Counted from the stretch's first letter, positions 11,389-61,407 are shown. The stretch: DNA of 61,914 nt from an uncultured Erysipelotrichaceae bacterium (GCA_902788975.1 CADAMI010000001.1:1-61914), one strand, 5' to 3'. A program made the numbers and translations. The notes: generated by a model not told the origin, from the letters alone.

Positions 11389-11419
11389 CGTATCACTTCC
11401 TTTTCATTTTTTTTCACGT

Positions 11420-11490
11420 GTACTCCACTAACTTTGAGTACTATATTAATAATTAATACCCCCAAGTAATATAAGGCATTATTGCCTTAT
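11420..11490 (-). promoter_or_regulatory. Structured ~120-nt leader of the amidotransferase-like gene (two hairpins)
   Basis: GTACTC-N10-GAGTAC at 11420-11441. Perfect ATAAGGCA-TTAT-TGCCTTAT at 11471-11490. Both lie between promoter copy P1 and ATG 11388. Confidence 0.4.
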
Positions 11491-11508
11491 ATCTAAATAT
11501 TAACTTCT

Positions 11509-11553
11509 TTCTATATATTATATATGTTTTTCATAGTATATAAAGGTTTCGGT
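11509..11553 (-). promoter_or_regulatory. Repeated BRE/TATA promoter cassette, copy P1
   Basis: Minus strand ACCGAAACCTTTATATACTATGAAAAACATATATAATATATAGAA. TTTATATA box at 11537-11544. Confidence 0.6.
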
Positions 11554-11554
11554 T

Positions 11555-11899
11555 TCAAACCCTTATTAATTTATATTTTTTATGTGTTTTATAACTTCCG
11601 TGTTTATCGTGTCCACAAACAGCACAATAATCTGCTCCACATTTTCTACAAGTAAATTCTTTTTCTGGAACACCTTTAGGATTTTCCCGTAAAGTATTAT
11701 ACTTTTTACAATGTGGGCAATAATCATAAAACTTAACGTTAAACCATTTATATTTAACTTTATTTATGTAACAAGTTCTACAACTAGGTTTCGCTTTCAT
11801 CTTAATAGTAGGTTTCTTTATTTTAGCAGCATCTACATCAGATGTTGCCGTTACAAAAGATATACCTATTATTAAGAATACTATAAATATTAAATACAT
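11555..11899 (-). CDS. Secreted or membrane-anchored Cys-rich protein (four CxxC pairs)
   Basis: N-terminal hydrophobic segment MYLIFIVFLIIGISFVTA, then CRTC, CPHC, CRKC, CAVC. Has its own promoter copy P2 and a GGAGAG RBS. Confidence 0.65.
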   Translation of the reverse strand: MYLIFIVFLIIGISFVTATSDVDAAKIKKPTIKMKAKPSCRTCYINKVKYKWFNVKFYDYCPHCKKYNTLRENPKGVPEKEFTCRKCGADYCAVCGHDKHGSYKTHKKYKLIRV

Positions 11900-11921
11900 A
11901 TATTTCTTAATAATAACACTC

Positions 11922-11966
11922 TCCTATATATTATATATGTTCTTCATAGTATATAAAGGTTTCGGT
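11922..11966 (-). promoter_or_regulatory. Promoter cassette, copy P2
   Basis: Near-identical 45-mer (one substitution). TATA at 11950-11957, about 50 nt upstream of ATG 11899. Confidence 0.6.
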
Positions 11967-11988
11967 CATATGACCTACTATGAAGAAA

Positions 11989-12237
11989 TTAAACACTAAA
12001 TATGTTTAATAATGATACTATAATGTTACCTATTTTTAAAGTTAATTCTCTACTAACACCCAAATGGATTAACTTAGTATCACTAGTTGTACTTGTATTT
12101 TTATAATACAATACACCATAATGAGTATCAATAGGTCTATCTTTTAAACAATAAGTCTCATCATAATACTCAGCTTTTATAATAAAAGCATCAATTTTTT
12201 TATTTTCTTCTAACCAAAATCTACTATAATTATTCAC
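11989..12237 (-). CDS. Hypothetical protein
   Basis: 82-aa ORF downstream of 12257-12814 in the same transcription unit. Confidence 0.55.
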   Translation of the reverse strand: MNNYSRFWLEENKKIDAFIIKAEYYDETYCLKDRPIDTHYGVLYYKNTSTTSDTKLIHLGVSRELTLKIGNIIVSLLNIFSV

Positions 12238-12256
12238 ATTTTCACCTTAAAAGAAT

Positions 12257-12814
12257 TTAATTAGAAAATCCTAAGATTTTCTGTTTTAATTCTTCATATT
12301 CATCATCAAATCTACTAACTCCAAATCTACTTTCTGTAATTTCAGATAAATAGTAATCTTCATCGATTATATCTTTATGAATAAATACTTTCAAATAATC
12401 GCTATAAATAAAATCTTTAGGATTATATGATTCTATTCCTATATATAAAGTTCCACCACCTATAATAAGAAATTTAGAATCATTAAAATCTGTGTCATCT
12501 TCCCATTTTATCCAAAGATGTTGATTTTTTTCTCCAAAGAAATTAATGTTAATAAATTCAATAATTTCTTTCTTATTTTTTAAAGCATTAGTTAAAGTAC
12601 TAATATCTTTATCTTCTAAAAATATTGCAAGATTTTTAACTAATGAATGTCTTATTGTACCATCGTGTTCTACAAATCCTATTTCATAAAGAATAGTCAT
12701 TGCTAAATAATGGTATATATTAAAAATATGGTCTTTATTATTTAAGTCTTGACCCAATCCTATTAATCTTTCTTTTTCTTCTTTATTTAAAGTTAAATTA
12801 TTTTTTAATTTCAT
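12257..12814 (-). CDS. Hypothetical protein
   Basis: 185-aa ORF behind promoter copy P3 and a GGAGAT RBS. Confidence 0.7.
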   Translation of the reverse strand: MKLKNNLTLNKEEKERLIGLGQDLNNKDHIFNIYHYLAMTILYEIGFVEHDGTIRHSLVKNLAIFLEDKDISTLTNALKNKKEIIEFININFFGEKNQHLWIKWEDDTDFNDSKFLIIGGGTLYIGIESYNPKDFIYSDYLKVFIHKDIIDEDYYLSEITESRFGVSRFDDEYEELKQKILGFSN

Positions 12815-14612: not shown

Positions 14613-15413
14613 TTATAATACATCAAACAAAGTATTAATAACAAAAGGAGATAAAGAATTATTTACTTTAAAAATAAAATCATTAACATCATACCCACTT
14701 AAATCATAATTATCACTATACCCATTAATCCTAGCTATTTCACGAATAGTACAAGTAGTACGTTTAGGATTAAAATGGTAATAATGCTTCCCAGTATCAT
14801 TATTAATTGGGAATAACATAGAAATCCTATCAGCATTATCTATTTCATCTCTAAGTTTTTTACTATTAGAAGGTTTTTTATTACTACCATCAGCAAATTT
14901 CTTTTTATCTATATTATTCTTAATACCTAATTTTTTAAACACATCATCTTTTACACCTAATTCTGAAAAGATTTTATATTTTTCAAAATTAGCAGCAGCA
15001 TTATTATTAGGGATATTTAAAGTATCAGCTATTTTATAATATTCCTTTTCTAGTTTATCGATTTTTTTACCATACAATAATGCTATAGGAGCTATATGAT
15101 TATGTGGAATAGCTATTAAATCAATATCATCACTAAAAGAAAAGTATATTTTTTCTTTGCTGCAAATTATTAATAATCGCATAATATTATTAGGTAAACC
15201 AAAAAATGTATTAGATGCAATACCTTTAAATAATATATGGAAACCTTTTGATTGTAATTTGGTTGTCAGTTTTTTATACAAAATATCATCATTAATTAAT
15301 TTAGAAGGTAAATCTAAAATAAGTTTATCATTATAAAAAAAGTCAAAATCTAAATTAATTAAATCTCTTATACCTTTTTTAGAATTCAAATTTACATAAT
15401 TATCATTAAACAT
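14613..15413 (-). CDS. DNA (cytosine-5)-methyltransferase-like protein lacking the N-terminal catalytic motifs (truncated or degenerate)
   Basis: GFHILFKGIASNTFFGLPNNIMRLLII (motif VIII-like), TIREIARINGYSDNYDLSG (motif IX), VNNSLSP (motif X-like). No FxGxG or PCQ motif. Start moved to ATG 15413 behind GGAG. Confidence 0.45.
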   Translation of the reverse strand: MFNDNYVNLNSKKGIRDLINLDFDFFYNDKLILDLPSKLINDDILYKKLTTKLQSKGFHILFKGIASNTFFGLPNNIMRLLIICSKEKIYFSFSDDIDLIAIPHNHIAPIALLYGKKIDKLEKEYYKIADTLNIPNNNAAANFEKYKIFSELGVKDDVFKKLGIKNNIDKKKFADGSNKKPSNSKKLRDEIDNADRISMLFPINNDTGKHYYHFNPKRTTCTIREIARINGYSDNYDLSGYDVNDFIFKVNNSLSPFVINTLFDVL

Positions 15414-15437
15414 TTTAACATTCTCCAAAAAATTAAA

Positions 15438-15520
15438 GGTTGGTAAAAATAGTTCGTATACTAGCGAAATTGAGTCCTCAAATTTCGTTCGTATACTTGC
15501 GAACAGTTCGCATACCAACC
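15438..15520. repeat. Nested repeat complex (operator or recombination-site candidate)
   Basis: An 8-bp IR GGTTGGTA/TACCAACC brackets two 17-bp direct repeats GTTCGTATACT(A/T)GCGAA (15452-68, 15487-503). These flank the palindrome CGAAATTGAG-TC-CTCAAATTTCG. Confidence 0.85.
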
Positions 15521-15574
15521 AATTGTTATAAAAATGTTGAATAAAAATAGTATTCGGCAATCATTGTATTATCA

Positions 15575-15690
15575 TAAGGTTGAATTTTTATTTTTGTTGA
15601 TATGAAAAAACATTTGGTTGGTCTTGTTTTGGTTGAACGAAACAAATTGTGCATTATTTTTTGGTTGAAAAATCATTTGGTTGAAAAAAT
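15575..15690. repeat. Dispersed TTTGGTTGA(A) motif, five or six copies
   Basis: GGTTGA at 15578, 15631, 15663 and 15679, with variants at 15595 and 15615. Non-coding. Confidence 0.7.
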
Positions 15691-15706
15691 TTTAAAATGT
15701 GAAAAA
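15691..15706. repeat. 16-nt direct repeat TTTAAAATGTGAAAAA, left copy (partner at 20510-20525)
   Basis: Read directly. The two copies bracket the amidoligase island plus the iteron array. Confidence 0.8.
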
Positions 15707-16121
15707 TCATAATATTGACTTGGGTGCAAACAAACGACGTAGCTGCCGTATTGGGATTTTTCGGTGGTGGTATGCCCGTTTTTGACCTTATAAACCATAG
15801 ATTTTTGGTTATAGCTTCAAAGGGTCATTTTTATGAAAAAAAGTTGATTTTAGTTTGATTAAGTTGTGTAATATTGATTAAAGCCTAATCCAGTTACTCT
15901 TAGCTATTTTTATATTATTTTTTCAAAAAAGCTGTTTCAAGTTTCTTAAGATTTGTTAAAGTTTTGAAGTTTTTCTTCGATGTTTATTATTACTTTTATA
16001 GTATCGAAGTATTACATAAAAAACACTAAGAATTTGAAGTAATATAATAGAATCATACAAGTATCTATATGATTAAAATGAGTTTTATAGAATTTGTTTT
16101 ATATATTACAAACTAATTTAG

Positions 16122-16163
16122 CTGCCGAAAAAAATAAAATAGAGAACTTAGTGTTCTCTATAT
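16122..16163 (-). terminator. Stem-loop plus T-run terminator after the island operon
   Basis: Minus strand ATAGAGAAC-ACTAA-GTTCTCTAT followed by TTTATTTTTTT, starting 1 nt after stop 16164-16166. Confidence 0.7.
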
Positions 16164-17243
16164 CTATTCTAGGTCGTTTTCTGCTTCTTCAGCCAATCTA
16201 GCTTCTCTCTCGTAATATCTTTTATTACGTCTCGCTACAAACTGTAAAAGCTGTATTGAGTGTCCAGTTGTCTCAGAAAGGAATTCTATGAACCTATCAG
16301 CTGTTAAGGCTCTTTCTAAGTCCTCTTCGTTATAAATAACTGTCTCTGCGTATATCAATAGATGGTCGCATATCTCTACGGAGCAATAGATGCTTTCTAG
16401 GTCTAAAGAACCTCTGAAGAATCGGAATTCTATTGTTTCGCGAGTGAAGTTCACCGCTAGGTATCTACTGAAACTAATGAGCCTATCTAGGTCATAGTCT
16501 TCAATATTAGGGATACGGCAGTATCCCATTCCGTTTCTGCCGCTTATAGCTTTTATAAAGGTTGGATTAGCTATTATAAATTTAATTAGGAATTGAATAG
16601 CTTCTTTAGACCATTCGTCTTTGCTGAAATGTACGTGCAATCCACAGTTGCCTCCGTTCCAGCTGCGAATCCTATAGGTTTCTCTTAGGTCTGTAAGGAG
16701 ATTGCAGATGTCTTTGTAGCCTACTTCTCTCCAGTACTCTCTAGTCATTGGGTCAGTTATGATTTCGACCCCATCAGTTAATGAGCCATCTCTTTCGAAG
16801 TAAAAGCTGTCTGTATATCCACTAAGGATATCACAGAACCCTTCGTCTATCCCATCGTGAATAGATTCTATTTCGAGCTCAAAGCCTCTGTAAGCTACTT
16901 TGAAGGATTCTCCGTTGTCTCTAGGTGCAAAACAGCCCTTATGCGCGTGATAGTCTTGAATGGGGCTCATAGATTCTTCAGATCCTGTTACGCAACACCC
17001 ACAGTAGGTTAAGCCATCATAGCCCTCGTGAGTATGCTCAAGGCTCAATAATCTTCCACAGCCTTCGCAGATGCAAGTATTGTCGTAAAGCTGCTGTGTA
17101 GCTTCTTCGATTTGCTCAATCAATGCTCTAGTGTCGCAGCACATTGAGTAATTGTTATCGATTATCTCAGTTGCGTTAAGAATTACTTCGCAAATGTCGC
17201 TAAAGTTAAGTCCATTTAAGATTGTTTCGTTTCTGTTAGTCAT
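16164..17243 (-). CDS. Zinc-ribbon + glutamine-synthetase-like carboxylate-amine ligase (Amidoligase_2-type), paralogue 1
   Basis: CEGCGR...HTHEGYDGLTYCGCCV; RGFELEIES; ERDGSLTDGVEIITDPM; GGNCGLHVHFS; ETIEFRFFRG. Confidence 0.7.
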   Translation of the reverse strand: MTNRNETILNGLNFSDICEVILNATEIIDNNYSMCCDTRALIEQIEEATQQLYDNTCICEGCGRLLSLEHTHEGYDGLTYCGCCVTGSEESMSPIQDYHAHKGCFAPRDNGESFKVAYRGFELEIESIHDGIDEGFCDILSGYTDSFYFERDGSLTDGVEIITDPMTREYWREVGYKDICNLLTDLRETYRIRSWNGGNCGLHVHFSKDEWSKEAIQFLIKFIIANPTFIKAISGRNGMGYCRIPNIEDYDLDRLISFSRYLAVNFTRETIEFRFFRGSLDLESIYCSVEICDHLLIYAETVIYNEEDLERALTADRFIEFLSETTGHSIQLLQFVARRNKRYYEREARLAEEAENDLE

Positions 17244-17280
17244 ATTTAGTTCCTCCGTTTGTTATATAAGTTGTTTAGAT

Positions 17281-17778
17281 TTATTGTAGTTCTTCTAGCT
17301 GTATTCTAGATTGTTGTTCTAATTTTTTTCTAAAGGTTTCTAAAAGTTCTTCGTATGTTTCAGATTGCTCTATAGTTGTTTTAGCCCCATTGAGCCACCC
17401 CCAGATGACTCTATAGTGTCTAATCTTATCGTAGCAACCTTCGATTGTATTTAAGTGTCTTTTGGTCGCAGGAATGTATTCTAGCCTTCCGATTATCCAA
17501 AGGGATATAGGATAATCGTCTTCGACTAATTCGGTTATTATTAGGTCGTCATAATAATTAAGGCATTTCCATAAGGCTTTTAGCTTCAATTCGACTTCTT
17601 CTAGGTCTTTATTTAAGCAGTCAACCACGTAGCTGGTTGAAAAGCATTCTAGTTCCCATAGATAATGTTTAATTAATTCATAGGGATTGGAGTATAATCC
17701 GTGCTTTTCAGCAAATGTTTTAGAATGTGCGAATTTAAATTCTTCAATTGTAGGTGCTTCGTTGTTTCTTATAGTCAT
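17281..17778 (-). CDS. Hypothetical acidic protein (island)
   Basis: 165-aa ORF behind TTAACGGAGGAACTAAAATG. No motif recognised. Confidence 0.7.
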   Translation of the reverse strand: MTIRNNEAPTIEEFKFAHSKTFAEKHGLYSNPYELIKHYLWELECFSTSYVVDCLNKDLEEVELKLKALWKCLNYYDDLIITELVEDDYPISLWIIGRLEYIPATKRHLNTIEGCYDKIRHYRVIWGWLNGAKTTIEQSETYEELLETFRKKLEQQSRIQLEELQ

Positions 17779-17854
17779 TTTAGTTCCTCCGTTAATAATT
17801 TAAGTTATTTAAGTTCATATTTTTAAAAAGGGGTAATTTAGTACCCCTTCGTGC

Positions 17855-18883
17855 TTAATAGCCTCTTTGAGCTATGCGTTTTTGTTTTAAGTTCCATATA
17901 CGATGTCTTCGTGCTATGAAGCCTAATAAGATGTCTGCATTTGAAGTAGTTGCTCTTAGCCATTCTTCGAATCCTCTAGGGCTCAAGGTATAATCGCAGA
18001 TGTCTCCGTTCTCGCTTATATGCTCGCAGTATCTTAATAGGTAATCGCATAATTCGATACTGCACCAGATGCTCGGAGTATCCAAAGTACCCCTAAAGAA
18101 TCTGAATTCAGCGGTTTCACGAGTGAAGTTCACCGCTAGGTATCTCTCAGAGTTATAAAGGCTTTCTAAGTCGTAGTCATTGAAATTAGGGATACGGCAA
18201 TATCCGAAATCGTCTCTACCGCTCAAAGCTTTGAAATAGGTCGGATTCGCAATTATTAGTTTAATTAATGTTCTGAAGGTCTCGCTAGACCATTCGTCTC
18301 TACTGAAGTGGACGTGGAGACCGCAATTTCCTCCGTCCCAACTGTAGACTCCTCCGACCCCCTTAAGGTCTGTGATTAGGTCTCTTAGGACATCAAAGCC
18401 CACGTTCCTCCAGTATTCGAATGACATCGGATTTGAGATGACTTCGAATCCGTTATTTAGGCTTCCGTCCTCTTCAAAGGCAAATTCAGAATCATAGTTC
18501 TCTAAGATTTCGAATAGCTCTAAATTTAGCCCGTTTGTTTCAATTTCGAGCTCAAAGCCTCTAAATTTTTGAGGTAGAACCTCTCCGTTGTCTTTAAATT
18601 CATAAGTGCCTTTATGGTAATGGTAAGACCTAATAGGACTGTAAGCTCTGTTCGCATCTTCTACGCAACACCCACAGTAGGTATTTCCGTCGTAGCCTTC
18701 GTGAGTGTGTCCGTAGGAGATTATTCTACCGCAGTTTTCACAGACATTCATTTCGTCTGCGAAGGTACTTGCGTAGCTTATAAGTTCATCAAGATATCCT
18801 TGTAGTTCGCAACAAACCCCTTCGTTGTCTAAGTTTTGTGCAGCGTCTAAGATTCTTTCGATTTGTTGTTGTGCGTAAGTCAT
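17855..18883 (-). CDS. Zinc-ribbon + Amidoligase_2-type ligase, paralogue 2
   Basis: CENCGR...HTHEGYDGNTYCGCCV; RGFELEIET; EEDGSLNNGFEVISNPM; GGNCGLHVHFS; ETAEFRFFRG. Roughly half the residues are identical to paralogue 1 by eye. Confidence 0.7.
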   Translation of the reverse strand: MTYAQQQIERILDAAQNLDNEGVCCELQGYLDELISYASTFADEMNVCENCGRIISYGHTHEGYDGNTYCGCCVEDANRAYSPIRSYHYHKGTYEFKDNGEVLPQKFRGFELEIETNGLNLELFEILENYDSEFAFEEDGSLNNGFEVISNPMSFEYWRNVGFDVLRDLITDLKGVGGVYSWDGGNCGLHVHFSRDEWSSETFRTLIKLIIANPTYFKALSGRDDFGYCRIPNFNDYDLESLYNSERYLAVNFTRETAEFRFFRGTLDTPSIWCSIELCDYLLRYCEHISENGDICDYTLSPRGFEEWLRATTSNADILLGFIARRHRIWNLKQKRIAQRGY

Positions 18884-21552: not shown

Positions 21553-22236
21553 TTATAAAGGTATTACAACATAGTAATTTTGTCTGTAGCCCTTATTAGC
21601 ATTATCTAAACACTTAAATTTATACTTTCTACTAACACCTTTAGCTGGGTCAGCAACAATATAATGTGTAAGGTCAGTTTTCCAAATAAGACCATAATGT
21701 CCAAACTTTGAAACATAATCACCTTTACATTTCCTTGTTTGGTCTACTTGCCAATGACAAATAATTGGGAAACCTTTCTTTAAATATTTCTTAACTTCAC
21801 TACTTTTTCTAGCAATAGGTAAAATTTTAAAACCTAATTTAGGAGCATACTTAATAAGGTTAGCTGGAGAAGTACCCCCATTTTTACTGGTCTGTAAAAT
21901 CTTAGCACATTGTTGCTCTGAGTGGTAGTTATATAACAATTGGCTAGCCATTGATAAACTAGTCGGACAACAAGTATAATTAGTACTTTGTGGGTCAAAC
22001 ACTAAAGGATTATCAGCATTACTAGTTAAAGTAACATAATTAGGATACCTACCATTTTTCAATATAAACATATTCATACTTTCATATAATCCAGCATATT
22101 GTTTTGGTGTTAATTTATATTCTTTTTTGGTATCCATATCTACCATTTTCAACCAATTAGGTAATCCTTCACCTTTTTTCAACCACTTATTTATTCTTTT
22201 AGCTCCATCTTGAAGCATATTTTTACTAAATCTCAT
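21553..22236 (-). CDS. Pseudomurein endoisopeptidase-like lysin (PMBR repeats + Cys-His-Asp peptidase; PeiW/PeiP-type)
   Basis: PMBR-like ...KKGEGLPNWLKM and LTPKQYAGLYESMNMFILKNGRYPNYVTL. Peptidase NYTCCPTSLSMA, FGHYGLIW, VADPAKG. Confidence 0.75.
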   Translation of the reverse strand: MRFSKNMLQDGAKRINKWLKKGEGLPNWLKMVDMDTKKEYKLTPKQYAGLYESMNMFILKNGRYPNYVTLTSNADNPLVFDPQSTNYTCCPTSLSMASQLLYNYHSEQQCAKILQTSKNGGTSPANLIKYAPKLGFKILPIARKSSEVKKYLKKGFPIICHWQVDQTRKCKGDYVSKFGHYGLIWKTDLTHYIVADPAKGVSRKYKFKCLDNANKGYRQNYYVVIPL

Positions 22237-51425: not shown

Positions 51426-52808
51426 TCACCTACCAAATAAATTAAATAACCCATCATTAACTTTTTTGAATTTATCTATACTTAAAGTTTGTCTACTTCT
51501 ATTTAAATAATTAAATCCTAAACTTGTAGCATCTACAATATCATCAAAAAAATCATCAATAGGATTAAATAATCCCATTTCTTTAATAAATTCTTTATTC
51601 CAAGCAGCTTTACGCATCATAAAATTATCAGTTTCTATAGCATTAGCTAATGGTAAAGCTCTACTTTCTTTATTTTGATTACTATAAACCCAAGTAACTG
51701 GATATTTTCTAAAAATCTGATTCCAATGCTGTTTTAAAGCGATTCCAGCCATTCCTGGCTGTTGTTCAATCACTTGCACAACGTCTGGGTCATCATTTCC
51801 CATAACATCAGTTATTTTTCGTTCTACTTCACCAACAGTACCCCTAAATCTAACAAGATTATCAATACATATTTTATTATTAGATAAAAGATACATTAAA
51901 GCACCAACAGTATAATTAGACCTTTTTTCATCTAAAGTATCATAAGTGGCAATATCCCAAGCACGACATTTTCTAACAATACGAATATCTAATTTTTTAT
52001 ATTCTTCTATCATATCTGGTCTAAAGAATGAACCACCTTCTGGAACTGGAGCGTTCATATATAAAGCGTTCCACCAATAATCAGATAATGATTTTTTAAT
52101 TTTAAGATATTGTTCTGTAGTAAATCTTTGTGGGAAAAATGATTCACCTTTTTCATTTAAAGCTGGATAATTTAATACAGTCCATTCATCACCTTCATTT
52201 TCTAATAAATGACCAGTTAAATCATTAATAGACCAACGTGTTTGAACTAAAACTACAGCACCATTAGGTTCTAATCTAGTCAAAGCAGTAGATTCATACC
52301 AATCTATAATTTTATTTCTAATAGTAGAAGATTTAGATTCTTCAGCATTTTTAATAGGGTCATCAATAATAAGTACATCACAACCCCTACCAGTAATAGA
52401 AGAACCTACACCAGAAGCTTTATATCCACCTAAATGATTATCAATTTCAAATTCAGTAGCGTGATGCATTGCTGGGTCTATTTTTACTTCAAATTCTGGG
52501 TGTTCTACAATATTTTCTTTCACTCTTTTACCAAAAGATGCAGCAAATCCACTAGAATAAGTAGCAAATATAATACGATTATCTGGATAATTTGTAAGAT
52601 ACCAAGAAGGAAAAAATGTAGATATAGTTAAAGATTTTCCAGCTCTAGGTGGCATATTTACAATTAATCTATCAATTTCACCTTTAGAAATTTTATTAAG
52701 AGCTTCCATAATTTCAATCAAATGATTAGCATAAATATATTTAGGATAACAATATTTCATATAAGTGGGTAAATGTTTTTTTGCTAACAAAATATTTTTA
52801 TCTATCAT
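51426..52808 (-). CDS. terL: Terminase large subunit
   Basis: MPPRAGKSLT Walker A, VLIIDDP Walker B, VQTRWSINDLTGHL. Confidence 0.9.
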   Translation of the reverse strand: MIDKNILLAKKHLPTYMKYCYPKYIYANHLIEIMEALNKISKGEIDRLIVNMPPRAGKSLTISTFFPSWYLTNYPDNRIIFATYSSGFAASFGKRVKENIVEHPEFEVKIDPAMHHATEFEIDNHLGGYKASGVGSSITGRGCDVLIIDDPIKNAEESKSSTIRNKIIDWYESTALTRLEPNGAVVLVQTRWSINDLTGHLLENEGDEWTVLNYPALNEKGESFFPQRFTTEQYLKIKKSLSDYWWNALYMNAPVPEGGSFFRPDMIEEYKKLDIRIVRKCRAWDIATYDTLDEKRSNYTVGALMYLLSNNKICIDNLVRFRGTVGEVERKITDVMGNDDPDVVQVIEQQPGMAGIALKQHWNQIFRKYPVTWVYSNQNKESRALPLANAIETDNFMMRKAAWNKEFIKEMGLFNPIDDFFDDIVDATSLGFNYLNRSRQTLSIDKFKKVNDGLFNLFGR

Positions 52809-53320
52809 TATTTTTCACCCATTTCTTTATTTTGTTGCTCTATCAACTTTTCAGTTAAAGCTGACCATACATCACCATCAGCATTAATCATTTGAATAAC
52901 TTTAGCTTCTTCTTCAGATAATTCTTTTTCACTATTTTCATACCTTTCATCATTTCTATCAACATTTTCTAAAGTCATATCCAATTGCATCATATTACGA
53001 ACATCAGCTAAATCACGTAAATCCATTCTTAATCTACCTTCTTGTAAAGGTTTAAGAAATTGGTCAGATAACACTTTACGAATTGCTTGTTGATAAACAG
53101 TTCTCATTTTTTCAGATTCTTCAAGTCTTTGCCTTCTCATTAAAGCAAGATTTTGTCTATCTCTTTCTGCTATACGATTTTGCCAATTAAATTCGTGAGA
53201 CCACTTAGCTACAGTTTGTGGAGAATAATCTAAAGTATCAGCTAAACGTGTAAGACTTCTATTTTTACCCATATCATAATAAATTTCAAATGCTTGAGAT
53301 TGATGTGGTTTCTCTTCCAT
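52808..53320 (-). CDS. terS: Terminase small subunit candidate
   Basis: 170 aa. HTH-like LADTLDYSPQTVAKWSHEFNWQNRI. TAATG-coupled to terL. Confidence 0.6.
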   Translation of the reverse strand: MEEKPHQSQAFEIYYDMGKNRSLTRLADTLDYSPQTVAKWSHEFNWQNRIAERDRQNLALMRRQRLEESEKMRTVYQQAIRKVLSDQFLKPLQEGRLRMDLRDLADVRNMMQLDMTLENVDRNDERYENSEKELSEEEAKVIQMINADGDVWSALTEKLIEQQNKEMGEK

Positions 53321-53981
53321 TTAAATCACCCCTTTTATTATGAACAGATTTAAAATCTAAATTCAAAATTCTATCCATTCTTAAACATATTCTCCAATTA
53401 TCATAATTTAATATTTTTTCAAGATATGGATTAAAATCCAATTCATCAAATTCTAAAAACAACCATAAATCATAATCTGAAAAATTATCAACCAAATAAT
53501 CAATATCTTTCATATTTTTAATAGTACACGTAAAAATACATTTATCAAATTTAGATTTATACCAATCCATATCATCTCTTTTAGTATAAGGTGTACCAGC
53601 ACTAAAAGTTTTAATGTTAAAAATTATAGTATCACATAATTCTAAATCTTTAGAATATTTTTTACCATTGGTTTCAATAATAACATTATAATTAGCATTA
53701 TTTAATATATTTATTAACTCTGAAAAATCTTGAATTGTTGGTTCTCCACTACCACCAATAATTATATTTTTATAATTAAATTCAGATATAATAAATAATA
53801 ATTCATTAATACCATATGTTATATACCTAGTACTATCATAAATATCATTCTTATGAAAATAATTTTGTATACAATAATTACATTTACGATTACAACCATA
53901 AACATCTAAATATAATGCTGGTTTACCTATTTTATTACCACAATAACATAAACCTATATATATACCTTTTAATTTATACAT
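53286..53981 (-). CDS. Radical SAM enzyme of the NrdG/QueE type (likely NrdD activase)
   Basis: GCNRKCNYC (CxxxCxxC), IIIGGSGEPT, IIETNG. Start ATG 53981 behind GGTG. Confidence 0.6.
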   Translation of the reverse strand: MYKLKGIYIGLCYCGNKIGKPALYLDVYGCNRKCNYCIQNYFHKNDIYDSTRYITYGINELLFIISEFNYKNIIIGGSGEPTIQDFSELINILNNANYNVIIETNGKKYSKDLELCDTIIFNIKTFSAGTPYTKRDDMDWYKSKFDKCIFTCTIKNMKDIDYLVDNFSDYDLWLFLEFDELDFNPYLEKILNYDNWRICLRMDRILNLDFKSVHNKRGDLNGRETTSISSI

Positions 53982-53992
53982 TATTAACACCG

Positions 53993-54859
53993 TTATTTTT
54001 TCCACCTACCATCAATAATCTTAGGAATCATATATTTATAGATAAACATTTGATTAATTTTACCATTTTTAGTAAATATTTTATATGATGATGGGTCACC
54101 CATAAGATTATATAAATAATATATTAATATATCTGTAAAATAATTGATATTAATTTCATCATTTCCAGAACCATCTAATTCTTTATCTTTTTTATCATAA
54201 TACCATTTATGTACATTTTTTATATAATTTAATGTGTATGTAATATTACCTTGTCTATAATTATTCATAAAAGTTATTGTATCATTACATATAGTACCTT
54301 TAAAATTTATATATTTATTTACATCACATAACCAACCATTATAATTTAAATAATTGAAAAATTTATTAGAAAAAAAATCAGTATTACCTATAGTAGTATT
54401 TTGTACAGATGTAAAACTTAAACAATTAATTTTATCATTACAATTCATAAAATCAATTGACATTTCAAAAATATCATCTATATTTTTTAAAGGTTTAAAT
54501 AATACTTTATTTTTTATTCTTTTTTTATAATAATAACCTTCAAAATCATCTTCAGCTATATAAAAATATTTATATCCTAACTTTTTAGCAAAATAAAAAA
54601 CAACAGATAAACTATTTAAATTAGTATTTAATATGTGAAAATTATCACAACTATCATAATATTTACTTTGTTCTTTTTTATTATATAATAGTAATTTTTC
54701 TTTAGGTATTTTTTTCTTATATTCTTCTAATTCTGGGTCATTATCTTCCACTATAACATACCAATCACCAGTATACCCAGCATTTAATAGACTAGTAATA
54801 GTTATTATATTATTTGACTTTTTATATGATGTTATAAATACTGCGAAATCATCTCTCAT
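53993..54859 (-). CDS. GT-A-like glycosyltransferase paralogue 1 (tentative)
   Basis: MRDDFAVFITSYKK...GDWYVIVEDNDPELEEYKKKIPKEKLLLYNKKE...IAEDDF; ends IIDGRWKK. Confidence 0.4.
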   Translation of the reverse strand: MRDDFAVFITSYKKSNNIITITSLLNAGYTGDWYVIVEDNDPELEEYKKKIPKEKLLLYNKKEQSKYYDSCDNFHILNTNLNSLSVVFYFAKKLGYKYFYIAEDDFEGYYYKKRIKNKVLFKPLKNIDDIFEMSIDFMNCNDKINCLSFTSVQNTTIGNTDFFSNKFFNYLNYNGWLCDVNKYINFKGTICNDTITFMNNYRQGNITYTLNYIKNVHKWYYDKKDKELDGSGNDEININYFTDILIYYLYNLMGDPSSYKIFTKNGKINQMFIYKYMIPKIIDGRWKK

Positions 54860-55740
54860 TTTTTCCACCTACCATCAATAATTTTAGGATAAATATTTTC
54901 ATAATCTTTATTATAATGAAAACCATAAGTATTTTTGTTATTATAAATTATTTTAATAATACTATTAGGTCTACACATTAATAATGTCATTAATTCTAAA
55001 AATTTAGTATTAGTAAAAGTATTATATAATTCACTATTACCACCATCATTTCTATTTTTACTAAGTACAAATTTTTTACCTTTATAAAATAAAAAAGGTA
55101 AACTAATAACATATTTACCATATAAACCATTTAAATATTCAGTATTTACTTCTTCTTCAAATATACTATAGAATGGATAAGGTTTATCAACTTTCATTAA
55201 ATAAATAGATAACATTTTATTTACATACCCATCAATAAATATATTATCTGTAACACCACCAAATAAACCCATTTCATTACAAAAACTAACATTTGAATAA
55301 TGTGTATCATTTAAAAAATCTAAATGATATTCTAAACCATCATTAAATTGTATATCATTTATTTTTTTAGCCAATAATTTATTTTTATATGGTAATCTAA
55401 TAATAAAATTACTTATATCATCATCTATTATACAATAAAAATTTAAATTTAATTCATAAACTAATTCATTTTGTATATAATCTAATGCATATAATTTACA
55501 ATTAAAATCTTTTTTATTATAAAAAGTATCATATCCATTATAATGTTCTTTTTTATTAAATATAAATAAATGTTCTTTAGGTATACCATTTTTATATTCT
55601 TCTAATTGTGGGTCATTATCATCAACAACAACATACCATTTACCATCATAATTATATTTTTCTAACATATTTAAAGTATATTTTTTTAATACATCAAATC
55701 TATTATATGAAGGTATAATTATAGCAAAATCATCTCTCAT
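54856..55740 (-). CDS. GT-A-like glycosyltransferase paralogue 2 (tentative)
   Basis: FAIIIPSYNRFDVL...GKWYVVVDDNDPQLEEYKNGIPKEHLFIFNKKE...IIDDDISN; ends IIDGRWKK. Confidence 0.45.
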   Translation of the reverse strand: MRDDFAIIIPSYNRFDVLKKYTLNMLEKYNYDGKWYVVVDDNDPQLEEYKNGIPKEHLFIFNKKEHYNGYDTFYNKKDFNCKLYALDYIQNELVYELNLNFYCIIDDDISNFIIRLPYKNKLLAKKINDIQFNDGLEYHLDFLNDTHYSNVSFCNEMGLFGGVTDNIFIDGYVNKMLSIYLMKVDKPYPFYSIFEEEVNTEYLNGLYGKYVISLPFLFYKGKKFVLSKNRNDGGNSELYNTFTNTKFLELMTLLMCRPNSIIKIIYNNKNTYGFHYNKDYENIYPKIIDGRWKK

Positions 55741-56660
55741 TTTTTCCACCTCTCATCAATAATCATAGGAACACAATTATTCCATTTTACATTATGATGT
55801 ATTCTTAAATGATTTTGACCCATAGGTACAATATCAATACAAGATGGCATTATCATTTTTGAATAAAATGATTTTAAATATGTACCATTATTTATATAAA
55901 TTTCACTCATACCACCTTTGTTTAATTGAGTTTGCTCTTGTCTAAAAAATAATCTACCATATGTTAAAAAAACTTTACCTAGACTACCATAATATATATA
56001 AGTATTTACATCTTCATTAATATGTCCGATAAAATCTAAATTAGTTTCTTTTTTAGCAAAAAAACTGTTCATACATTTTCTTGAATATCCTTTTATTATC
56101 ATATTTGAATTCATTCCACCAATATAATCACCAGCTTGAGCTAAACAAACAGTATGAATATTACTATTTTCTAAAAATTCAATCATATATTCAATAATTT
56201 TATCTATTTTTTTGGGTGCTGGTTTTTCTCTTAAAATTTCATAATCATCTTTTTTATATGCTAAAGCTATATAATCATCATCTAAAACTAAATAATAATC
56301 ATAATCCATAGTTTTAACTATTTGATTAATAAAATTTCTAGGATACGCTACCACATGTTGAATACCAAAATTATCCATATTGTCAAAAGTAGAACCTATT
56401 TCTTTTTTATTGTATATTAATAATTTATTTTCTGGTATTCTTTTTTTATATTTGTCTAATTGTGGGTCATTATCATCAACAACAACATACCAATCTCCAG
56501 TATATTCATATTTTTTTAATAATTTTAAAGTTTTATTAAATAAAAAATCACATCTATTATAAGACATAATAAAAATAGTAAATTTATATTTACTATTTTC
56601 TTTATTATTCTGGATTTTCATTGTCATCAATCTCTTCACTATAAAAATCTTCTGGTTCAT
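55737..56660 (-). CDS. GT-A-like glycosyltransferase paralogue 3 (tentative)
   Basis: FTIFIMSYNRCDFL...GDWYVVVDDNDPQLDKYKKRIPENKLLIYNKKE...LVLDDDYIAL; ends IIDERWKK. Alternative starts at 56627 and 56621. Confidence 0.45.
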   Translation of the reverse strand: MNQKIFIVKRLMTMKIQNNKENSKYKFTIFIMSYNRCDFLFNKTLKLLKKYEYTGDWYVVVDDNDPQLDKYKKRIPENKLLIYNKKEIGSTFDNMDNFGIQHVVAYPRNFINQIVKTMDYDYYLVLDDDYIALAYKKDDYEILREKPAPKKIDKIIEYMIEFLENSNIHTVCLAQAGDYIGGMNSNMIIKGYSRKCMNSFFAKKETNLDFIGHINEDVNTYIYYGSLGKVFLTYGRLFFRQEQTQLNKGGMSEIYINNGTYLKSFYSKMIMPSCIDIVPMGQNHLRIHHNVKWNNCVPMIIDERWKK

Positions 56661-57480
56661 CTAAACCTAATAAACTACTCATTTTTTCAGATAAAGTAAT
56701 AAATCCATTTTTGATAGCACTATTAACATCTAAAATAATTAACGCAGATTGCTCCATTAATTCTTGCATATCTTTTTCTTGATGTGCATAGTATTCAGCT
56801 ATATTAGCATAATTAAATACTAAATGTCTTTGAGCTGCACGAATTAAAAAATCTTTTTGTTCTTTAGTTATTAATTTTTTATCAAAAGCTACATTTATAT
56901 TACTAATGAGTTCATCAGTTTTATTATGATTACATAATTCATTTATACTAGGTTCTTTACCAGTTATTTCATAAATAGGTGTTTTAATTTCTTTTACGTA
57001 TGTTTCATCATCGTCTATAAATCCATCTTTATCTAAAAAATCAACTTCTTCAACCCCAAACATTGAATCTATTTCAAATTCAGATAAACCAGTAAAATCA
57101 ATTAATGATGGGTCATCAGTCATCAAATCATTAACAACTTCTTCTAATTTATCAATATCCCAATAACCACTAATACGATTTAAAGCAATATTTAAACGTT
57201 TTTCATCATTTTCATCAACGTCTACATAGACTACATCGACTTCTTTAATACCTTTTTTCTTTAAAGCTCTTAATCTATGATGACCACCTACTATAACATT
57301 ATTTCTTTTATTTACTATAATAGGTTCAATATAACCATATCTCTCAATAGAATTTTCAAGATTTTTAAAATCTCTTTCTTCCATAACATTAGGATTATAA
57401 TCTGCATCTATTAAATCTTCTACTTTTACAGTATATAATTTCATTTTACCAGCATTTACATCTTTAATTTTTTTACTCAT
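56605..57480 (-). CDS. ParB/Srx-domain nuclease-like protein
   Basis: IIVNKRNNVIVGGHHRLRALKKKG. Acidic C-terminus. Confidence 0.65.
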   Translation of the reverse strand: MSKKIKDVNAGKMKLYTVKVEDLIDADYNPNVMEERDFKNLENSIERYGYIEPIIVNKRNNVIVGGHHRLRALKKKGIKEVDVVYVDVDENDEKRLNIALNRISGYWDIDKLEEVVNDLMTDDPSLIDFTGLSEFEIDSMFGVEEVDFLDKDGFIDDDETYVKEIKTPIYEITGKEPSINELCNHNKTDELISNINVAFDKKLITKEQKDFLIRAAQRHLVFNYANIAEYYAHQEKDMQELMEQSALIILDVNSAIKNGFITLSEKMSSLLGLDEPEDFYSEEIDDNENPE

Positions 57481-57485
57481 TTTAA

Positions 57486-57677
57486 TCAACCTTTATACCA
57501 TTTATGTTTATTCTTTTCATATCTTAAAAAATATTTAATTTTTTTCAAAATATGTATTTTTTCTTTTATTAATTTTTCATCATTAGGATTCTTTTTCAAT
57601 TCTAAAAGAATATTATGATATTCTTTATATAATTTATTTAAAGGTTTATACCTTTTTACATAATATTCTTTAGACAT
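57486..57677 (-). CDS. Small basic protein
   Basis: 63 aa, K-rich. Confidence 0.5.
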   Translation of the reverse strand: MSKEYYVKRYKPLNKLYKEYHNILLELKKNPNDEKLIKEKIHILKKIKYFLRYEKNKHKWYKG

Positions 57678-58425
57678 TTGAATCTTTAATAATTAATTCA
57701 TCTTCATTAAATATATTAACATTAGTATTTGCATTACACCCTATATTAATTACAGAATAACAACAAGGGTTAGCTTTTAAACCTTGCAATTCAGCATAAC
57801 TACCATCATATTTAAGAAAATGACCAGTCAAAACTAAATTTTTTCTAGTATATCCATTTAAAGTAATATTAGGTAAAGACATAGATTCAGCATAATGACA
57901 ATGACCATATAATACTAAATCAGCGTCAATATGCTGAGTGGCTCTCATAACTTGCCCTAACATTAAATGTAATTGATTACTAGTTTTAGTTCCGTGTTGA
58001 GAATGTATTTTATATTCAATACCATTAATCATAATTTTATGATATAATGTAGGAGAATACTCACATTCTAATTCACTTGCAATTAATTTACTTACATCTA
58101 AATCAAACTCTTTACGTGTCCTTAATTCGTGATTTCCAGGCACAGAACCCTTTATATAGCGTTTTAAAGGTTTTAAATACCCTAAAACCATATCTATCTG
58201 GTCATCAACGCTCATTTTTTGTTCATAAGCACTATTGCCCAGTCTTTTAGTAGCTAAATCTATCAAATCCCCTTGAAGATAAATAATTTTTTCACTTTTA
58301 CTACCTTTAAAACTTCTTAACCAATATTCTAAAAAATCTTCATTAAAAAAAGGACTACCTATATGTATATCCCCTAAAGGATATATCTGTAATTTCTTTC
58401 TAGTCGATAATTTATAATTTAACAT
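57670..58425 (-). CDS. Calcineurin-like metallophosphoesterase
   Basis: PLGDIHIG, LQGDLIDL, PGNHE, HSQHG, LYGHCH. Confidence 0.75.
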   Translation of the reverse strand: MLNYKLSTRKKLQIYPLGDIHIGSPFFNEDFLEYWLRSFKGSKSEKIIYLQGDLIDLATKRLGNSAYEQKMSVDDQIDMVLGYLKPLKRYIKGSVPGNHELRTRKEFDLDVSKLIASELECEYSPTLYHKIMINGIEYKIHSQHGTKTSNQLHLMLGQVMRATQHIDADLVLYGHCHYAESMSLPNITLNGYTRKNLVLTGHFLKYDGSYAELQGLKANPCCYSVINIGCNANTNVNIFNEDELIIKDSNV

Positions 58426-58459
58426 AATAATCACTAGTATAGCTTATTAAAACGTTGAA

Positions 58460-58915
58460 TTATTCATAACATAACCCACAATCTAAACATACAATATTAC
58501 CATCAATAATTTTAAAATTTGTTCCACCACAACTTTCACATACAGCATTTTCCATTTTTCTATTTAAAAAATTAATAGCATCTTTATATGCTATTGTTGG
58601 GTGATTTCTATCTAAATACGGGTTCTTATATATACCCATTCGTTTATAATATCTTCGCATATTTCTAGCAGAACTTTCTTGCCTTTGATATTTAAAACAA
58701 CTTCTAGAACAATATTGATGATTAGGTTTTTTAGGTATAAACACTTTTTTACAATATCTACACTTTTTAGGTAATTTCCAAAATACAATATTATTTCTTT
58801 TTAAATATTTACTTATTGTACTTTTTTTAACCCCATAATGCTTTGCAATATCTTCTAAAGTCATACCCTTTAATCTCATACCTTTTATATGACCAATATT
58901 ATATTTTTGTCTCAT
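58460..58915 (-). CDS. HTH + multi-zinc-ribbon regulator (C-terminal TFIIB-like ribbon)
   Basis: MTLEDIAKHYGVKKSTISKYLKRN; CRYC...CSRSC; CESCGGTNFKIIDGNIVCLDCG. Confidence 0.55.
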   Translation of the reverse strand: MRQKYNIGHIKGMRLKGMTLEDIAKHYGVKKSTISKYLKRNNIVFWKLPKKCRYCKKVFIPKKPNHQYCSRSCFKYQRQESSARNMRRYYKRMGIYKNPYLDRNHPTIAYKDAINFLNRKMENAVCESCGGTNFKIIDGNIVCLDCGLCYE

Positions 58916-59105
58916 TATAATCACTCCGTTTATATATAATTTTAGCCGTATATTGAATACCTTTAGTTAAATCATAAGCAGTTAAAGGTTCTTTTTCTTT
59001 TATATCAATACTAAATATATTTTCTTTATCATTATTAATTAATGTCAATATTTCATCTAATGAACCTATACAAATTAACTCTTTTTTAAAACTAATTGTT
59101 CTCAT
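58899..59105 (-). CDS. Hypothetical protein
   Basis: 68-aa ORF overlapping its neighbours. Confidence 0.5.
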   Translation of the reverse strand: MRTISFKKELICIGSLDEILTLINNDKENIFSIDIKEKEPLTAYDLTKGIQYTAKIIYKRSDYNETKI

Positions 59106-60279: not shown

Positions 60280-61407
60280 TCACCTAAAAAATTTTGTTAA
60301 ACTGGTTTGTAATTCTCTATCTCTAAGATTTAATTTATTAACAACCTTATCTACAGTAAATTGCACCCAATTCCTATTAATAGTATATTTAGATTCTGGT
60401 TCATAATCTAAAGGAAAAACTAACACTCCAGTAGGATTATTTATTCCATTAGCCACAACAGCATTATGATAAAAACCCCATTGAATATCAATATCGTGTT
60501 CTCTCATATATTGACAATTATCCCATTTATTAACAGCTAATTGTCTAGGTTTATGCTTAATAGCGAAATAACTTAATGGTTCACTTAATTTAGATTCCAT
60601 ATATTTATTAGCTAATAATTGTACATCTCTTTTATAAAATATTGTTCCATCTAATAAATTATCTAAAATATGATTCATTAAATCTACTTCAAATTGGCTA
60701 GATTTACTATTATAAAAAGATGCACCTTTCATTTTTCTACTATTATCTTTATGGAGTTTAACATAATTATTTTTATTAACTACTAAAAATTTAGTTAAAA
60801 ATTCTTCATAATCAAATATAATAAATCTATTTTCAAATCCAGTTAATTTTTTAACTATTTGGTCTACTAAATGTTGAGCTGTATGTAAAACTTCATAACC
60901 AGAATTTTCCCTATCTTTTAAATCTATTACAAATATTGAATCAGTTTTACCATAAACTACTTCCATATCATATTTAGGTAATTCTTTTACCAAAGTTTGC
61001 AATATAGTTCTACCAGCCCAAGTTACTGTAGCTGCAATATTAGTACCACCTAATAAAAATTTAGCTGTTTTTTGACTTAATAATCCATAAACACTATTAG
61101 CAATAATTTTTACAGCTAACTGTTCGGATTCCATACCTTTTTGTCTATATTCTCTTCTTAAATCAAGCAATTCAGTTATATATGAATCCAATAATCCATT
61201 TTCTTCATTAAATTCTTTTTTATCTATAACCAAATTCATATTAGTATCTTGATTAAAATTTACACTATATTCATTTTCTGGAGATAATCTCATTTGTCTT
61301 ATAAGATTAGGATATAACGAACTAAAATCTAAAACGTGTACATTTTCATAAATCATCATAATATCATTTTCCATTAATATAAATTTGTATATAATATAAT
61401 AATACAA
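60280..61407 (-). CDS. polB: Family B DNA polymerase, polymerase (palm/fingers/thumb) half (split gene)
   Basis: Motif A VLDFSSLYPNLI, motif B KIIANSVYGLL, motif C VVYGKTDSIFV. The ORF-track start is TTG; ATG at 61359 or 61374 is likelier. Confidence 0.85.
   Translation of the reverse strand: MYYYIIYKFILMENDIMMIYENVHVLDFSSLYPNLIRQMRLSPENEYSVNFNQDTNMNLVIDKKEFNEENGLLDSYITELLDLRREYRQKGMESEQLAVKIIANSVYGLLSQKTAKFLLGGTNIAATVTWAGRTILQTLVKELPKYDMEVVYGKTDSIFVIDLKDRENSGYEVLHTAQHLVDQIVKKLTGFENRFIIFDYEEFLTKFLVVNKNNYVKLHKDNSRKMKGASFYNSKSSQFEVDLMNHILDNLLDGTIFYKRDVQLLANKYMESKLSEPLSYFAIKHKPRQLAVNKWDNCQYMREHDIDIQWGFYHNAVVANGINNPTGVLVFPLDYEPESKYTINRNWVQFTVDKVVNKLNLRDRELQTSLTKFFR

Follow-up and report, generated by a model that had tools for sequence, protein, structure and literature searches.

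A mobile ParB–TAGT cassette upstream of the terminase genes of a predicted methanogen virus is a candidate system for glycosylating viral DNA

Results

A ParB-like gene and three TAGT genes lie upstream of the terminase genes

We analysed a 61,914-nucleotide stretch of DNA deposited under an uncultured Erysipelotrichaceae bacterium (GCA_902788975.1 CADAMI010000001.1:1-61914), called the window below, in which a ParB-like gene and three consecutive genes of the TAGT family (Pfam PF20691, TET-associated glycosyltransferase) lie on the minus strand upstream of the terminase genes of a predicted tailed virus. In transcription order, this ParB–TAGT cassette comprises the ParB-like gene (56605-57489), TAGT-1 (55737-56660), TAGT-2 (54856-55749) and TAGT-3 (53993-54868). 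It is followed on the same strand by the gene for a radical S-adenosylmethionine (radical-SAM) protein (53286-54005; Radical_SAM, 33 bits against a cut-off of 29.5), by terS, encoding the terminase small subunit (52808-53320; PF10668, 24.5 bits against a cut-off of 22; phrog_6299, E = 2.1e-22), and by the gene for the large subunit, TerL (51426-52808; Terminase_6N/6C; phrog_38, E = 4.8e-86). The ParB-like protein, which has the ParB/Srx N-terminal fold, scored 35.2 bits against the ParB_N cut-off of 26.3 and matched phrog_620 (E = 1.4e-48); its gene is situated 3.3 kb upstream of terS and overlaps TAGT-1, and the radical-SAM gene shares 35 nt with terS.

The three TAGT proteins scored 83.8, 58.5 and 50.7 bits (E = 2.1e-23, 1.1e-15 and 2.8e-13 for TAGT-1, TAGT-2 and TAGT-3) against the PF20691 gathering cut-off of 27.5 bits, and all of them also matched phrog_842, 'beta-glucosyl-HMC-alpha-glucosyltransferase' (E = 4.5e-57 for TAGT-1). 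TAGT-2 and TAGT-3 were 34% and 31% identical to TAGT-1, and paralogy was backed at the DNA level by direct repeats of 46-201 nt with 73-87% identity. An earlier reading of this DNA (hereafter, the original prediction) had proposed, from shared motifs, that the paralogues are GT-A-type glycosyltransferases with diverged C-terminal halves, missing that the TAGT family and its pairing with ParB had already been catalogued. Alignment of the three paralogues confirmed these motifs, namely the N-terminal F-x-I-x-I-x-S-Y, (V/I)(D/E)DNDP, DDD/EDD and the IID(G/E)RWKK end, and placed the DDD of TAGT-1 and TAGT-2 and the EDD of TAGT-3 at one invariant acidic position of the DxD type. Moreover, an AlphaFold2 model, made of TAGT-1 alone among the three paralogues (56 sequences; pLDDT 87.7, pTM 0.88), adopted the GT-A fold that the original prediction had anticipated; with all three proteins above the family cut-off, the GT-A assignment was substantiated. 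The top PDB fold matches of the model were GT-A enzymes without exception (TarP, TarS, GalNAc-T2, LARGE1, K4CP and SpsA; probability 1.0, TM 0.4-0.48; E = 1.8e-6 for TarP). Its best BFVD matches were viral TAGT-domain proteins (TM up to 0.82-0.86), and the T-even-type beta-glucosyl-HMC-alpha-glucosyltransferase in BFVD reached a TM of ~0.6. A PDB sequence search with TAGT gave no useful match.

The C-terminal halves had indeed diverged. TAGT-1, an orthologue of TAGTs in phages of Clostridia (42-47% identical), retains the C-terminal motifs NEDVNTY, QTQxNxGG and RIHH; TAGT-2 and TAGT-3 have kept the nucleotide-sugar half and the DDD/EDD motif and have lost all three. This pattern is compatible with a different acceptor, such as a sugar already attached, and we presume that TAGT-1 would act as the first, base-directed glycosyltransferase and that TAGT-2 and TAGT-3, both lineage-specific paralogues, would transfer the second and third sugars, respectively. 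Among the homologues of TAGT-1, a 461-aa protein present on 7 contigs (P0023) has an N-terminal P-loop domain (~180 aa, Walker A GPSCAGKT, kinase/NTPase-like) fused to a full TAGT; the domain is reminiscent of the DNA kinases in thymidine hypermodification pathways.

A near-identical sequence (...AGGTGGAAAAAATGAGAGATGATTT) occupies the TAGT-1/2 and TAGT-2/3 junctions, with a Shine-Dalgarno-like AGGTGG within the RWKK codons and then an ATGA stop/start overlap, an arrangement that accounts for the coupling of these genes and for part of the conservation of their C-terminal ends. The probable ATG starts are likely to sit a few codons within several of the open reading frames (ORFs): at 53981 for the radical-SAM protein (231 aa), at 56627 or 56621 for TAGT-1 (296 aa), at 55740 for TAGT-2 and at 54859 for TAGT-3, the last two both beginning with MRDDF.

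ParB and TAGT form a two-gene module across viruses

An alignment-based scan of IMG/VR retrieved 554 relatives, of which the best 80 loci were examined; single-sequence scans with TAGT-1 and with the radical-SAM protein, in contrast, found no match there, and a DNA-level search against phages returned short ParB and methylase-like matches only. ParB adjoined TAGT in 77 of the 80 loci, was fused to it in one (L085) and was separated from it by a radical-SAM gene in another (L048). The pairing was present in all 79 informative loci, the 80th offering no upstream sequence to judge. The fusion is a single in-frame ORF of 522 aa (L085:6269-7837), with ParB at residues 3-240 and TAGT at 240-520, and its ParB part passes directly into the usual MRDDF start of TAGT. 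ParB and TAGT are an obligate pair, near-universal in these loci.

The ParB-like protein of the window was 32-38% identical, over its full length, to the TAGT-adjacent ParB proteins of phages of Clostridia, Lactobacillus, E. coli and Haloarcula. The position of the pair also recurs: ParB and TAGT genes overlap upstream of the terminase genes in phages of Clostridia and Lachnospiraceae (L007-L009), lie directly upstream of the terminase in Lactobacillus phage phi jlb1 and E. coli phage vB_EcoS-666R9, and are found ~3 kb upstream of the terminase genes in the Haloarcula halovirus HHTV-2. Among 150 representative ParB–TAGT neighbours from the 80 loci, the commonest families were terminase, portal, Mu-F, SSB and sugar epimerases/dehydratases; neither a dioxygenase nor a ThyA family was among the 25 commonest neighbour families listed, although rare dioxygenases are possible. 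A literature search returned no paper on the role of ParB–TAGT in the absence of a dioxygenase.

In several IMG/VR phages, genes for NAD-dependent sugar epimerases/dehydratases lie directly downstream of ParB–TAGT (for example, the L080:5649-6728 cluster, 5 loci), suggesting that some modules supply their own modified nucleoside diphosphate (NDP)-sugar. In phi jlb1 (L014), the 1.4 kb directly upstream of the ParB gene (11350-12746) carries no annotated coding sequence; short ORFs in this interval resemble translated tRNA (GIEPRY, GVEPTF), possibly a tRNA cluster.

The cassette is a mobile insertion in a conserved backbone

Three further minus-strand genes precede the cassette: in transcription order, a helix-turn-helix (HTH)/zinc-ribbon protein (58460-58924; HTH_38, 27.9 bits), a metallophosphoesterase (MPE) resembling Mre11/SbcD-like or PolD-small-subunit-like nucleases (57670-58434; Pfam Metallophos, 24.8 bits against a cut-off of 21.5; phrog_7339 'DNA repair exonuclease', E = 6.6e-30) and a lysine-rich protein of 63 aa without any family match (57486-57677). 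All junctions from MPE to TerL are tight: neighbouring genes overlap by 1-56 nt or lie no more than 11 nt apart.

Close relatives of the virus differ in the presence and size of the cassette. ParB and four TAGTs lie upstream of terS in L006, whose TerL is 90% identical to that of the window, and at least three TAGTs do so in L001 (TerL 89%). L004 (TerL 89%) shows the order HTH, MPE, 63-aa gene and radical-SAM gene without ParB or TAGT, and the more distant L095 and L099 (TerL 68-70%) have an L004-like layout, likewise without ParB and TAGT, absence in relatives of the L004/L095 type being judged within the 13-17 kb examined. ParB together with a variable number of TAGTs is a mobile cassette, and its insertion site is flanked by the 63-aa gene and the radical-SAM gene. 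The MPE, 63-aa and radical-SAM genes are kept in relatives that lack ParB and all TAGTs and therefore belong, with TerS and TerL, to the conserved backbone. The original prediction had described seven minus-strand genes upstream of terS/terL, from MPE to the radical-SAM gene, as one translationally coupled unit; we recovered all seven, along with the motifs it had listed (GGHHRLRA in ParB; CxxxCxxC, GGSGEPT and ETNG in the radical-SAM protein), and the overlaps and tight junctions agree with coupling, but the functional unity of the seven did not stand because three of them are backbone. Among close relatives, we counted 0, 3 or 4 TAGT copies.

Between the window and L006, the TAGTs were 62-65% identical (62% for the TAGT-2 orthologue) versus 81-94% for MPE, ParB, the radical-SAM protein and TerL, a low value of the kind that would be expected for arms-race genes. 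TAGT-3 had no orthologue in L006 (best match 32%) and had one in L097 at 53%. We also placed metagenome contigs on the locus at 80% likeness, a procedure that is very noisy in AT-rich DNA and shows modular variation only: in a pig-gut run, contigs were ~98% identical over TerL, the radical-SAM gene, TAGT-3 and TAGT-2, with nothing substantial over TAGT-1, ParB and MPE. Together, the differences in copy number and identity and the pig-gut contigs indicate that the cassette turns over fast.

The flanking genes were conserved independently of the cassette, MPE at 71-94% in relatives with or without it, and the 63-aa gene at 51-86% in L004, L006 and L095, in each of which it sits between MPE and the gene that comes next. 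MPE homologues (39-44% identical) adjoin NrdD/dUTPase within a few kb in L100, L101, L104 and L105. MPE is probably a replication or repair nuclease rather than a glycosylation gene, judging from its relatives, and we set it aside as a member of the pathway on the grounds of its backbone conservation and its occurrence in replication and nucleotide modules of other viruses.

The radical-SAM protein is a QueE-derived orphan

Only ~6 relatives of the radical-SAM protein scored E < 1e-10 among 1.84 billion representative proteins, and every one whose context was examinable sits at the equivalent place in a related virus. QueE models matched 149 of the 150 sequences nearest to the radical-SAM protein, and its fold model (pLDDT 72) was closest to the QueE structures 5tgs and 4njg. 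Nevertheless, QueE models scored 43 bits on the protein against NCBIfam equivalog cut-offs of 206-260. Testing the QGEG, FxR and CDT signatures, we found that CxxxCxxC, GGEP, ETNG and K124 are retained and that six residues conserved in QueE are replaced (G13->Y, E14->C, R26->D, D38->I, K151->T and H203->D), at positions 83-99% conserved among 144 QueE-like proteins. By curated cut-offs, the protein is neither QueE nor NrdG, and its sequence marks it as a QueE-derived orphan.

The gene is present without ParB/TAGT in L004, L095 and L099. Its persistence in TAGT-less relatives (13-17 kb examined) led us to reject sugar tailoring as the leading idea for its role in this lineage; a role in priming a base or nucleotide is possible, as is an unrelated one. 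Elsewhere, a MoaA-like radical-SAM gene (~320 aa) abuts ParB–TAGT in L030, L035, L039 and L048, the L035 order of ParB-TAGT-TAGT-radical-SAM-small ORF-TerL-portal matching the window, and a SplB/PA0069-like one does so in L086. With the QueE-derived protein of the window, three unrelated radical-SAM families adjoin ParB–TAGT. Such adjacency was seen in 3 of 5 multi-copy and in 2 of 75 single-copy TAGT loci (Fisher p = 0.0012, the events not being phylogenetically independent). We suggest that the QueE-derived protein is the best candidate within the locus for an oxygen-independent priming step.

Genome, predicted host and nucleotide-metabolism genes

The window appears to be a complete, circularly permuted genome because the two parts of a split PolB, the exonuclease and polymerase genes, lie at its two ends (1081-2079 and 60280-61407) and their counterparts are contiguous in L006 (L006:2689-6497) and L095 (L095:3262-5612). 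Five small ORFs separate the PolB halves in L006 and, across the ends, in the window; a single 98-aa ORF does so in L095. The GC content of the window is ~25%, and the locus was found in bovine, pig and goat gut metagenomes. A lysin of a relative (L005:10090-10812) combines PMBR with Peptidase_C71, the classical architecture of a pseudomurein endoisopeptidase, and the lysin candidate of the window (21553-22236) carries Peptidase_C39 with a weak PMBR match; the catalytic domain (C39 vs C71) may have been swapped within one virus family. From these lysins, the GC content and the gut habitat, we predict that the host is a pseudomurein-walled methanogen and that the window represents a tailed virus of rumen/gut Methanobacteriales. 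Such a host is strictly anaerobic and would leave an O2-dependent dioxygenase unable to function. Methanogens, furthermore, use methanopterin instead of folate.

Family scans covered ~40 window ORFs outside the structural module (~25-50 kb of the window), including NrdD, a dUTPase/dCTP-deaminase-like protein, a DUF3310 nucleotide-kinase-like protein, two amidoligases, PolB and the C39-type lysin. In these ORFs, there was no match to a dCMP hydroxymethylase (thymidylate-synthase family) or a T4-type glucosyltransferase, and neither TGT/DpdA nor a companion deazaguanine gene (FolE, QueD, QueC) was found, in agreement with the original prediction that base hydroxymethylase and deazaguanine genes are absent. 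A 379-aa ORF in the nucleotide-metabolism module (10249-11388) matched no family in Pfam, PHROG or NCBIfam; since remote relatives carry the name 'predicted glutamine amidotransferase', it may be the glutamine amidotransferase partner of the two Amidoligase_2 genes (16164-18883). We set it aside as a hidden base modifier, as it probably goes with the amidoligase genes.

Discussion

On balance, we lean towards the reading that the ParB–TAGT cassette glycosylates viral DNA after replication, with TAGT-2 and TAGT-3 extending the glycan, and thereby protects it against host nucleases. Once replication is complete, and either ahead of packaging or in its course, the ParB-like protein would make double-stranded viral DNA accessible to TAGT-1, as ParB activators of phage thymine dioxygenases do; a ParB-like protein is experimentally required as the activator of such a dioxygenase on double-stranded DNA (PMC13229309), and Burke et al. 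refer to an older proposal in which ParB guides the modification machinery while DNA is packaged (PMC8256090). TAGT-1 would then move a host NDP-sugar to a base-linked acceptor. TAGT-2 and TAGT-3, with their diverged acceptor-side halves, would extend or diversify the glycan, much as the characterised member of the family, the T2/T6 TAGT enzyme, adds a second glucose to alpha-glucosyl-5-hydroxymethylcytosine (hmC) in DNA (PMC13216743, PMC13390438). The product would shield viral DNA from host nucleases. The protein families, the GT-A fold of TAGT-1, the structure of the cassette with its variable copy number, the linkage and fusion of ParB and TAGT and the lack of known primers in the scanned ORFs are established here; that DNA is the target, in which order the enzymes act and that the product is protective are inferred. 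Among the three roles offered by the original prediction, DNA hypermodification is the best supported, given that the characterised TAGT acts on phage DNA and that the obligate partner, once fused, is ParB-like; glycosylation of the virion and of the host surface are now its rivals.

Several observations weigh against DNA as the target. To our knowledge, all viral DNA glycosylation begins from a hydroxyl-bearing base made by an O2-dependent TET/JBP enzyme or a folate-dependent ThyA homologue, and we found no TET/JBP (PF12851), 2-oxoglutarate oxygenase or ThyA/ThyX homologue (PF00303) in the ~40 scanned window ORFs. The association from which the TAGT family takes its name, a neighbouring TET/JBP or pyrimidine hydroxymethylase gene, was absent from these ORFs and from the listed neighbours of related loci, and a hydroxyl-bearing acceptor base cannot be accounted for. 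The sole C5-cytosine methylase match (14613-15560) retains ENV and a VCELFAS resembling motif IV, while motif I is absent. It starts just before VCELFAS, the 600 nt upstream (15560-16164) are non-coding, and this stretch abuts the amidoligase island (GC 0.37-0.39), which may have caused the truncation; we rejected the gene as a base-modifying enzyme because it is a truncated remnant, and PDB sequence searches with it and with the 379-aa ORF gave nothing useful. Phage phi jlb1, a complete 38-kb genome with ParB–TAGT, has no annotated dioxygenase or nucleotide-metabolism gene, and small phages of this kind, with ParB–TAGT alone, imply a hitherto unrecognised acceptor or a non-DNA target. The characterised T2/T6 enzyme falls outside the ParB-linked clade. 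Because the radical-SAM gene also occurs without the cassette, the two may be neighbours simply through insertion at one hot spot upstream of the terminase. Finally, ~65% of phage glycosyltransferase contigs lack a 5mYOX (TET/JBP) or ThyS neighbour and were deemed less obviously DNA-directed (Pyle et al., bioRxiv 10.1101/2023.12.21.572611).

If DNA is the target, an oxygen- and folate-independent route through ParB–TAGT, here with the QueE-derived radical-SAM protein, is a speculative extension that comes in two versions. In one, the radical-SAM protein would use radical chemistry to prime a pyrimidine, taking over the function of TET/JBP under anaerobic conditions; in the other, ParB-assisted TAGT-1 would directly glycosylate a canonical base, a chemistry not yet described for DNA. 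We hold the former only tentatively. It refines the DNA reading by having the radical-SAM protein stand in for TET/JBP or a ThyA-like hydroxymethylase and make a pyrimidine acceptor, in DNA or as a free nucleotide, for glycosylation by the TAGTs; the simple modification would be expected where a relative has the radical-SAM gene but no cassette, and its glycosylated form where the cassette is present. A strictly anaerobic host rules out the O2-dependent 5mYOX and makes ThyA-type hydroxymethylases awkward through its use of methanopterin, the occurrence of the gene without TAGT in L004 and L095 fits priming rather than sugar tailoring, and the loss of QueE-conserved residues points to a new substrate. 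The three radical-SAM families beside ParB–TAGT, of which the SplB/PA0069-like one is related to the thymine-directed spore photoproduct lyase, and the correlation with extra TAGT copies fit as well. Yet we know of no radical-SAM pyrimidine hydroxylase, and the QueE scaffold is that of a compact small-molecule enzyme; L030, L035 and L039 may represent a single evolutionary event, and a radical-SAM enzyme can be no general primer, since 74 of the 80 ParB–TAGT loci have no radical-SAM gene abutting the pair or in the flanks retrieved and phi jlb1 has none annotated genome-wide. Alternatively, the protein could be an NrdG-type activase for the viral anaerobic ribonucleotide reductase NrdD (6866-8890) with no part in glycosylation. 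The NrdD of the window has no recognisable activase beside it, and the radical-SAM protein is small, with an N-terminal CxxxCxxC and a weak NrdG2 match (E = 1.4e-5). We regard this as improbable: the NrdG2 score of 24.6 bits falls short of the cut-off of 131, QueE accounts for all the closest relatives in sequence and fold, and the gene lies 45 kb from nrdD and overlaps terS. In addition, 9 of 10 related viral NrdD loci (NrdD 64-78% identical) have no activase nearby, and the tenth (L108) has a canonical NrdG directly after nrdD.

Other rivals turn on the substrate of the TAGTs. That they glycosylate a protein, be it a virion protein (the virion option of the original prediction), the terminase or ParB complex or a host factor, is in our view rather unlikely. 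A protein target would agree with the position of the cassette at the head of the structural operon, with fold relatives that include the protein-directed GalNAc-T2, ColGalT1 and ThuS, with the two-thirds of phage glycosyltransferases that have no base-modifying neighbour, and with the lack of an identifiable acceptor base in the scanned ORFs or the phi jlb1 annotation. It agrees poorly with the action of the characterised family member on DNA and with the DNA-associated ParB fold of the obligate, once fused, partner; the virion-glycosylating enzymes of mycobacteriophages that we know of are from other families and are not paired with ParB. Least probable of all is that the cassette acts on the host surface, where glycosylation of pseudomurein or a different wall polymer would resemble lysogenic conversion, or on a small molecule such as a nucleotide or a signalling compound. 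In favour of this, the TAGT-1 model gave the wall-teichoic-acid GlcNAc transferases TarP and TarS as its top PDB fold matches, and TarP is prophage-encoded; a surface or small-molecule substrate, however, leaves the ParB pairing unexplained, and the same pair occurs in viruses whose hosts (E. coli, Lactobacillus, Haloarcula and methanogens) differ completely in their envelopes.

Glycosylation of viral DNA by the ParB–TAGT cassette, the reading we prefer, gains interest from its setting, a predicted methanogen virus in an anoxic, folate-poor host, in which neither known type of primer was found among the scanned ORFs and ParB is nevertheless accompanied by three TAGT copies. ParB–TAGT, apparently without a dioxygenase, occurs in hundreds of IMG/VR contigs and also in cultured viruses of Lactobacillus, E. 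coli and Haloarcula, so that the question can be tested in tractable systems. Either outcome would matter: a DNA target would mean a new DNA modification and possibly an anaerobic priming chemistry, and another target would reassign a large 'DNA glycosyltransferase' family to a different substrate. An oxygen- and folate-independent route, if true, would constitute a new class of DNA modification widespread in gut-anaerobe phages and archaeal viruses, and the cassette is relevant to the means by which viruses of methanogens escape the restriction systems that abound in Methanobrevibacter.

Comparison with known systems

Hypermodification clusters that combine a 5mYOX dioxygenase, ParB and glycosyltransferases beside the terminase are known (Burke 2021, PMC8256090; Pyle 2023, bioRxiv 10.1101/2023.12.21.572611; O'Toole 2026, PMC13229309). 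Like the window, they place a ParB-like gene and one or more GT-A/TAGT glycosyltransferase genes immediately upstream of the terminase, follow a post-replicative logic and employ several glycosyltransferases to give di- or trisaccharides. In the ParB-dependent 5mYOX system (O'Toole 2026), as in the window, the gene for a ParB-like protein that carries an N-terminal nucleotide-binding domain sits next to that of the modifying enzyme and near the terminase. Unlike these clusters, the window has no 5mYOX, their defining priming enzyme, among its scanned ORFs and no intact C5-methylase; its predicted host is a strictly anaerobic archaeon, and between cassette and terS, at a position often adjacent to the dioxygenase in those clusters, it carries the QueE-derived radical-SAM gene. 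By gene content, the locus thus appears to resemble the published clusters and yet to fail their defining feature.

The beta-glucosyl-HMC-alpha-glucosyltransferase of T2/T6 shares the Pfam TAGT family and offers a model for TAGT-2 and TAGT-3 adding sugar to an attached sugar. T-even phages differ in making hmC before replication with a dCMP hydroxymethylase and in using a separate alpha-glucosyltransferase for the first sugar, neither of which was found in the scanned ORFs of the window, and their TAGTs are not paired with ParB. For the radical-SAM protein, M6 gp53, a radical-SAM isomerase resembling spore photoproduct lyase in thymidine hypermodification, provides a precedent in DNA hypermodification (PMC8989533). 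As in M6, the radical-SAM protein of the window would be encoded in a phage DNA-hypermodification cluster and would act on DNA; gp53 belongs to another radical-SAM family and acts on an amino-acid adduct of 5-hydroxymethyluracil, whereas the window enzyme is QueE-derived. QueE itself (7-carboxy-7-deazaguanine synthase) supplies the nearest sequence and fold relatives and the common CxxxCxxC, GGEP and ETNG motifs; the window protein differs in scoring below the cut-offs, in its six replaced residues and in having no deazaguanine pathway gene among the scanned ORFs. The closest parallels to the cassette are the stand-alone pairs of phi jlb1 (gp24/25), vB_EcoS-666R9 and HHTV-2 (gp21/22), known from annotation only, which share with the window an orthologous ParB (32-38% identical), an orthologue of TAGT-1 (35-47% identical), overlapping genes and the lack of an annotated dioxygenase. 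They carry a single TAGT; the lineage of the window, in contrast, combines three to four TAGTs with an adjacent radical-SAM gene and a predicted methanogen host.

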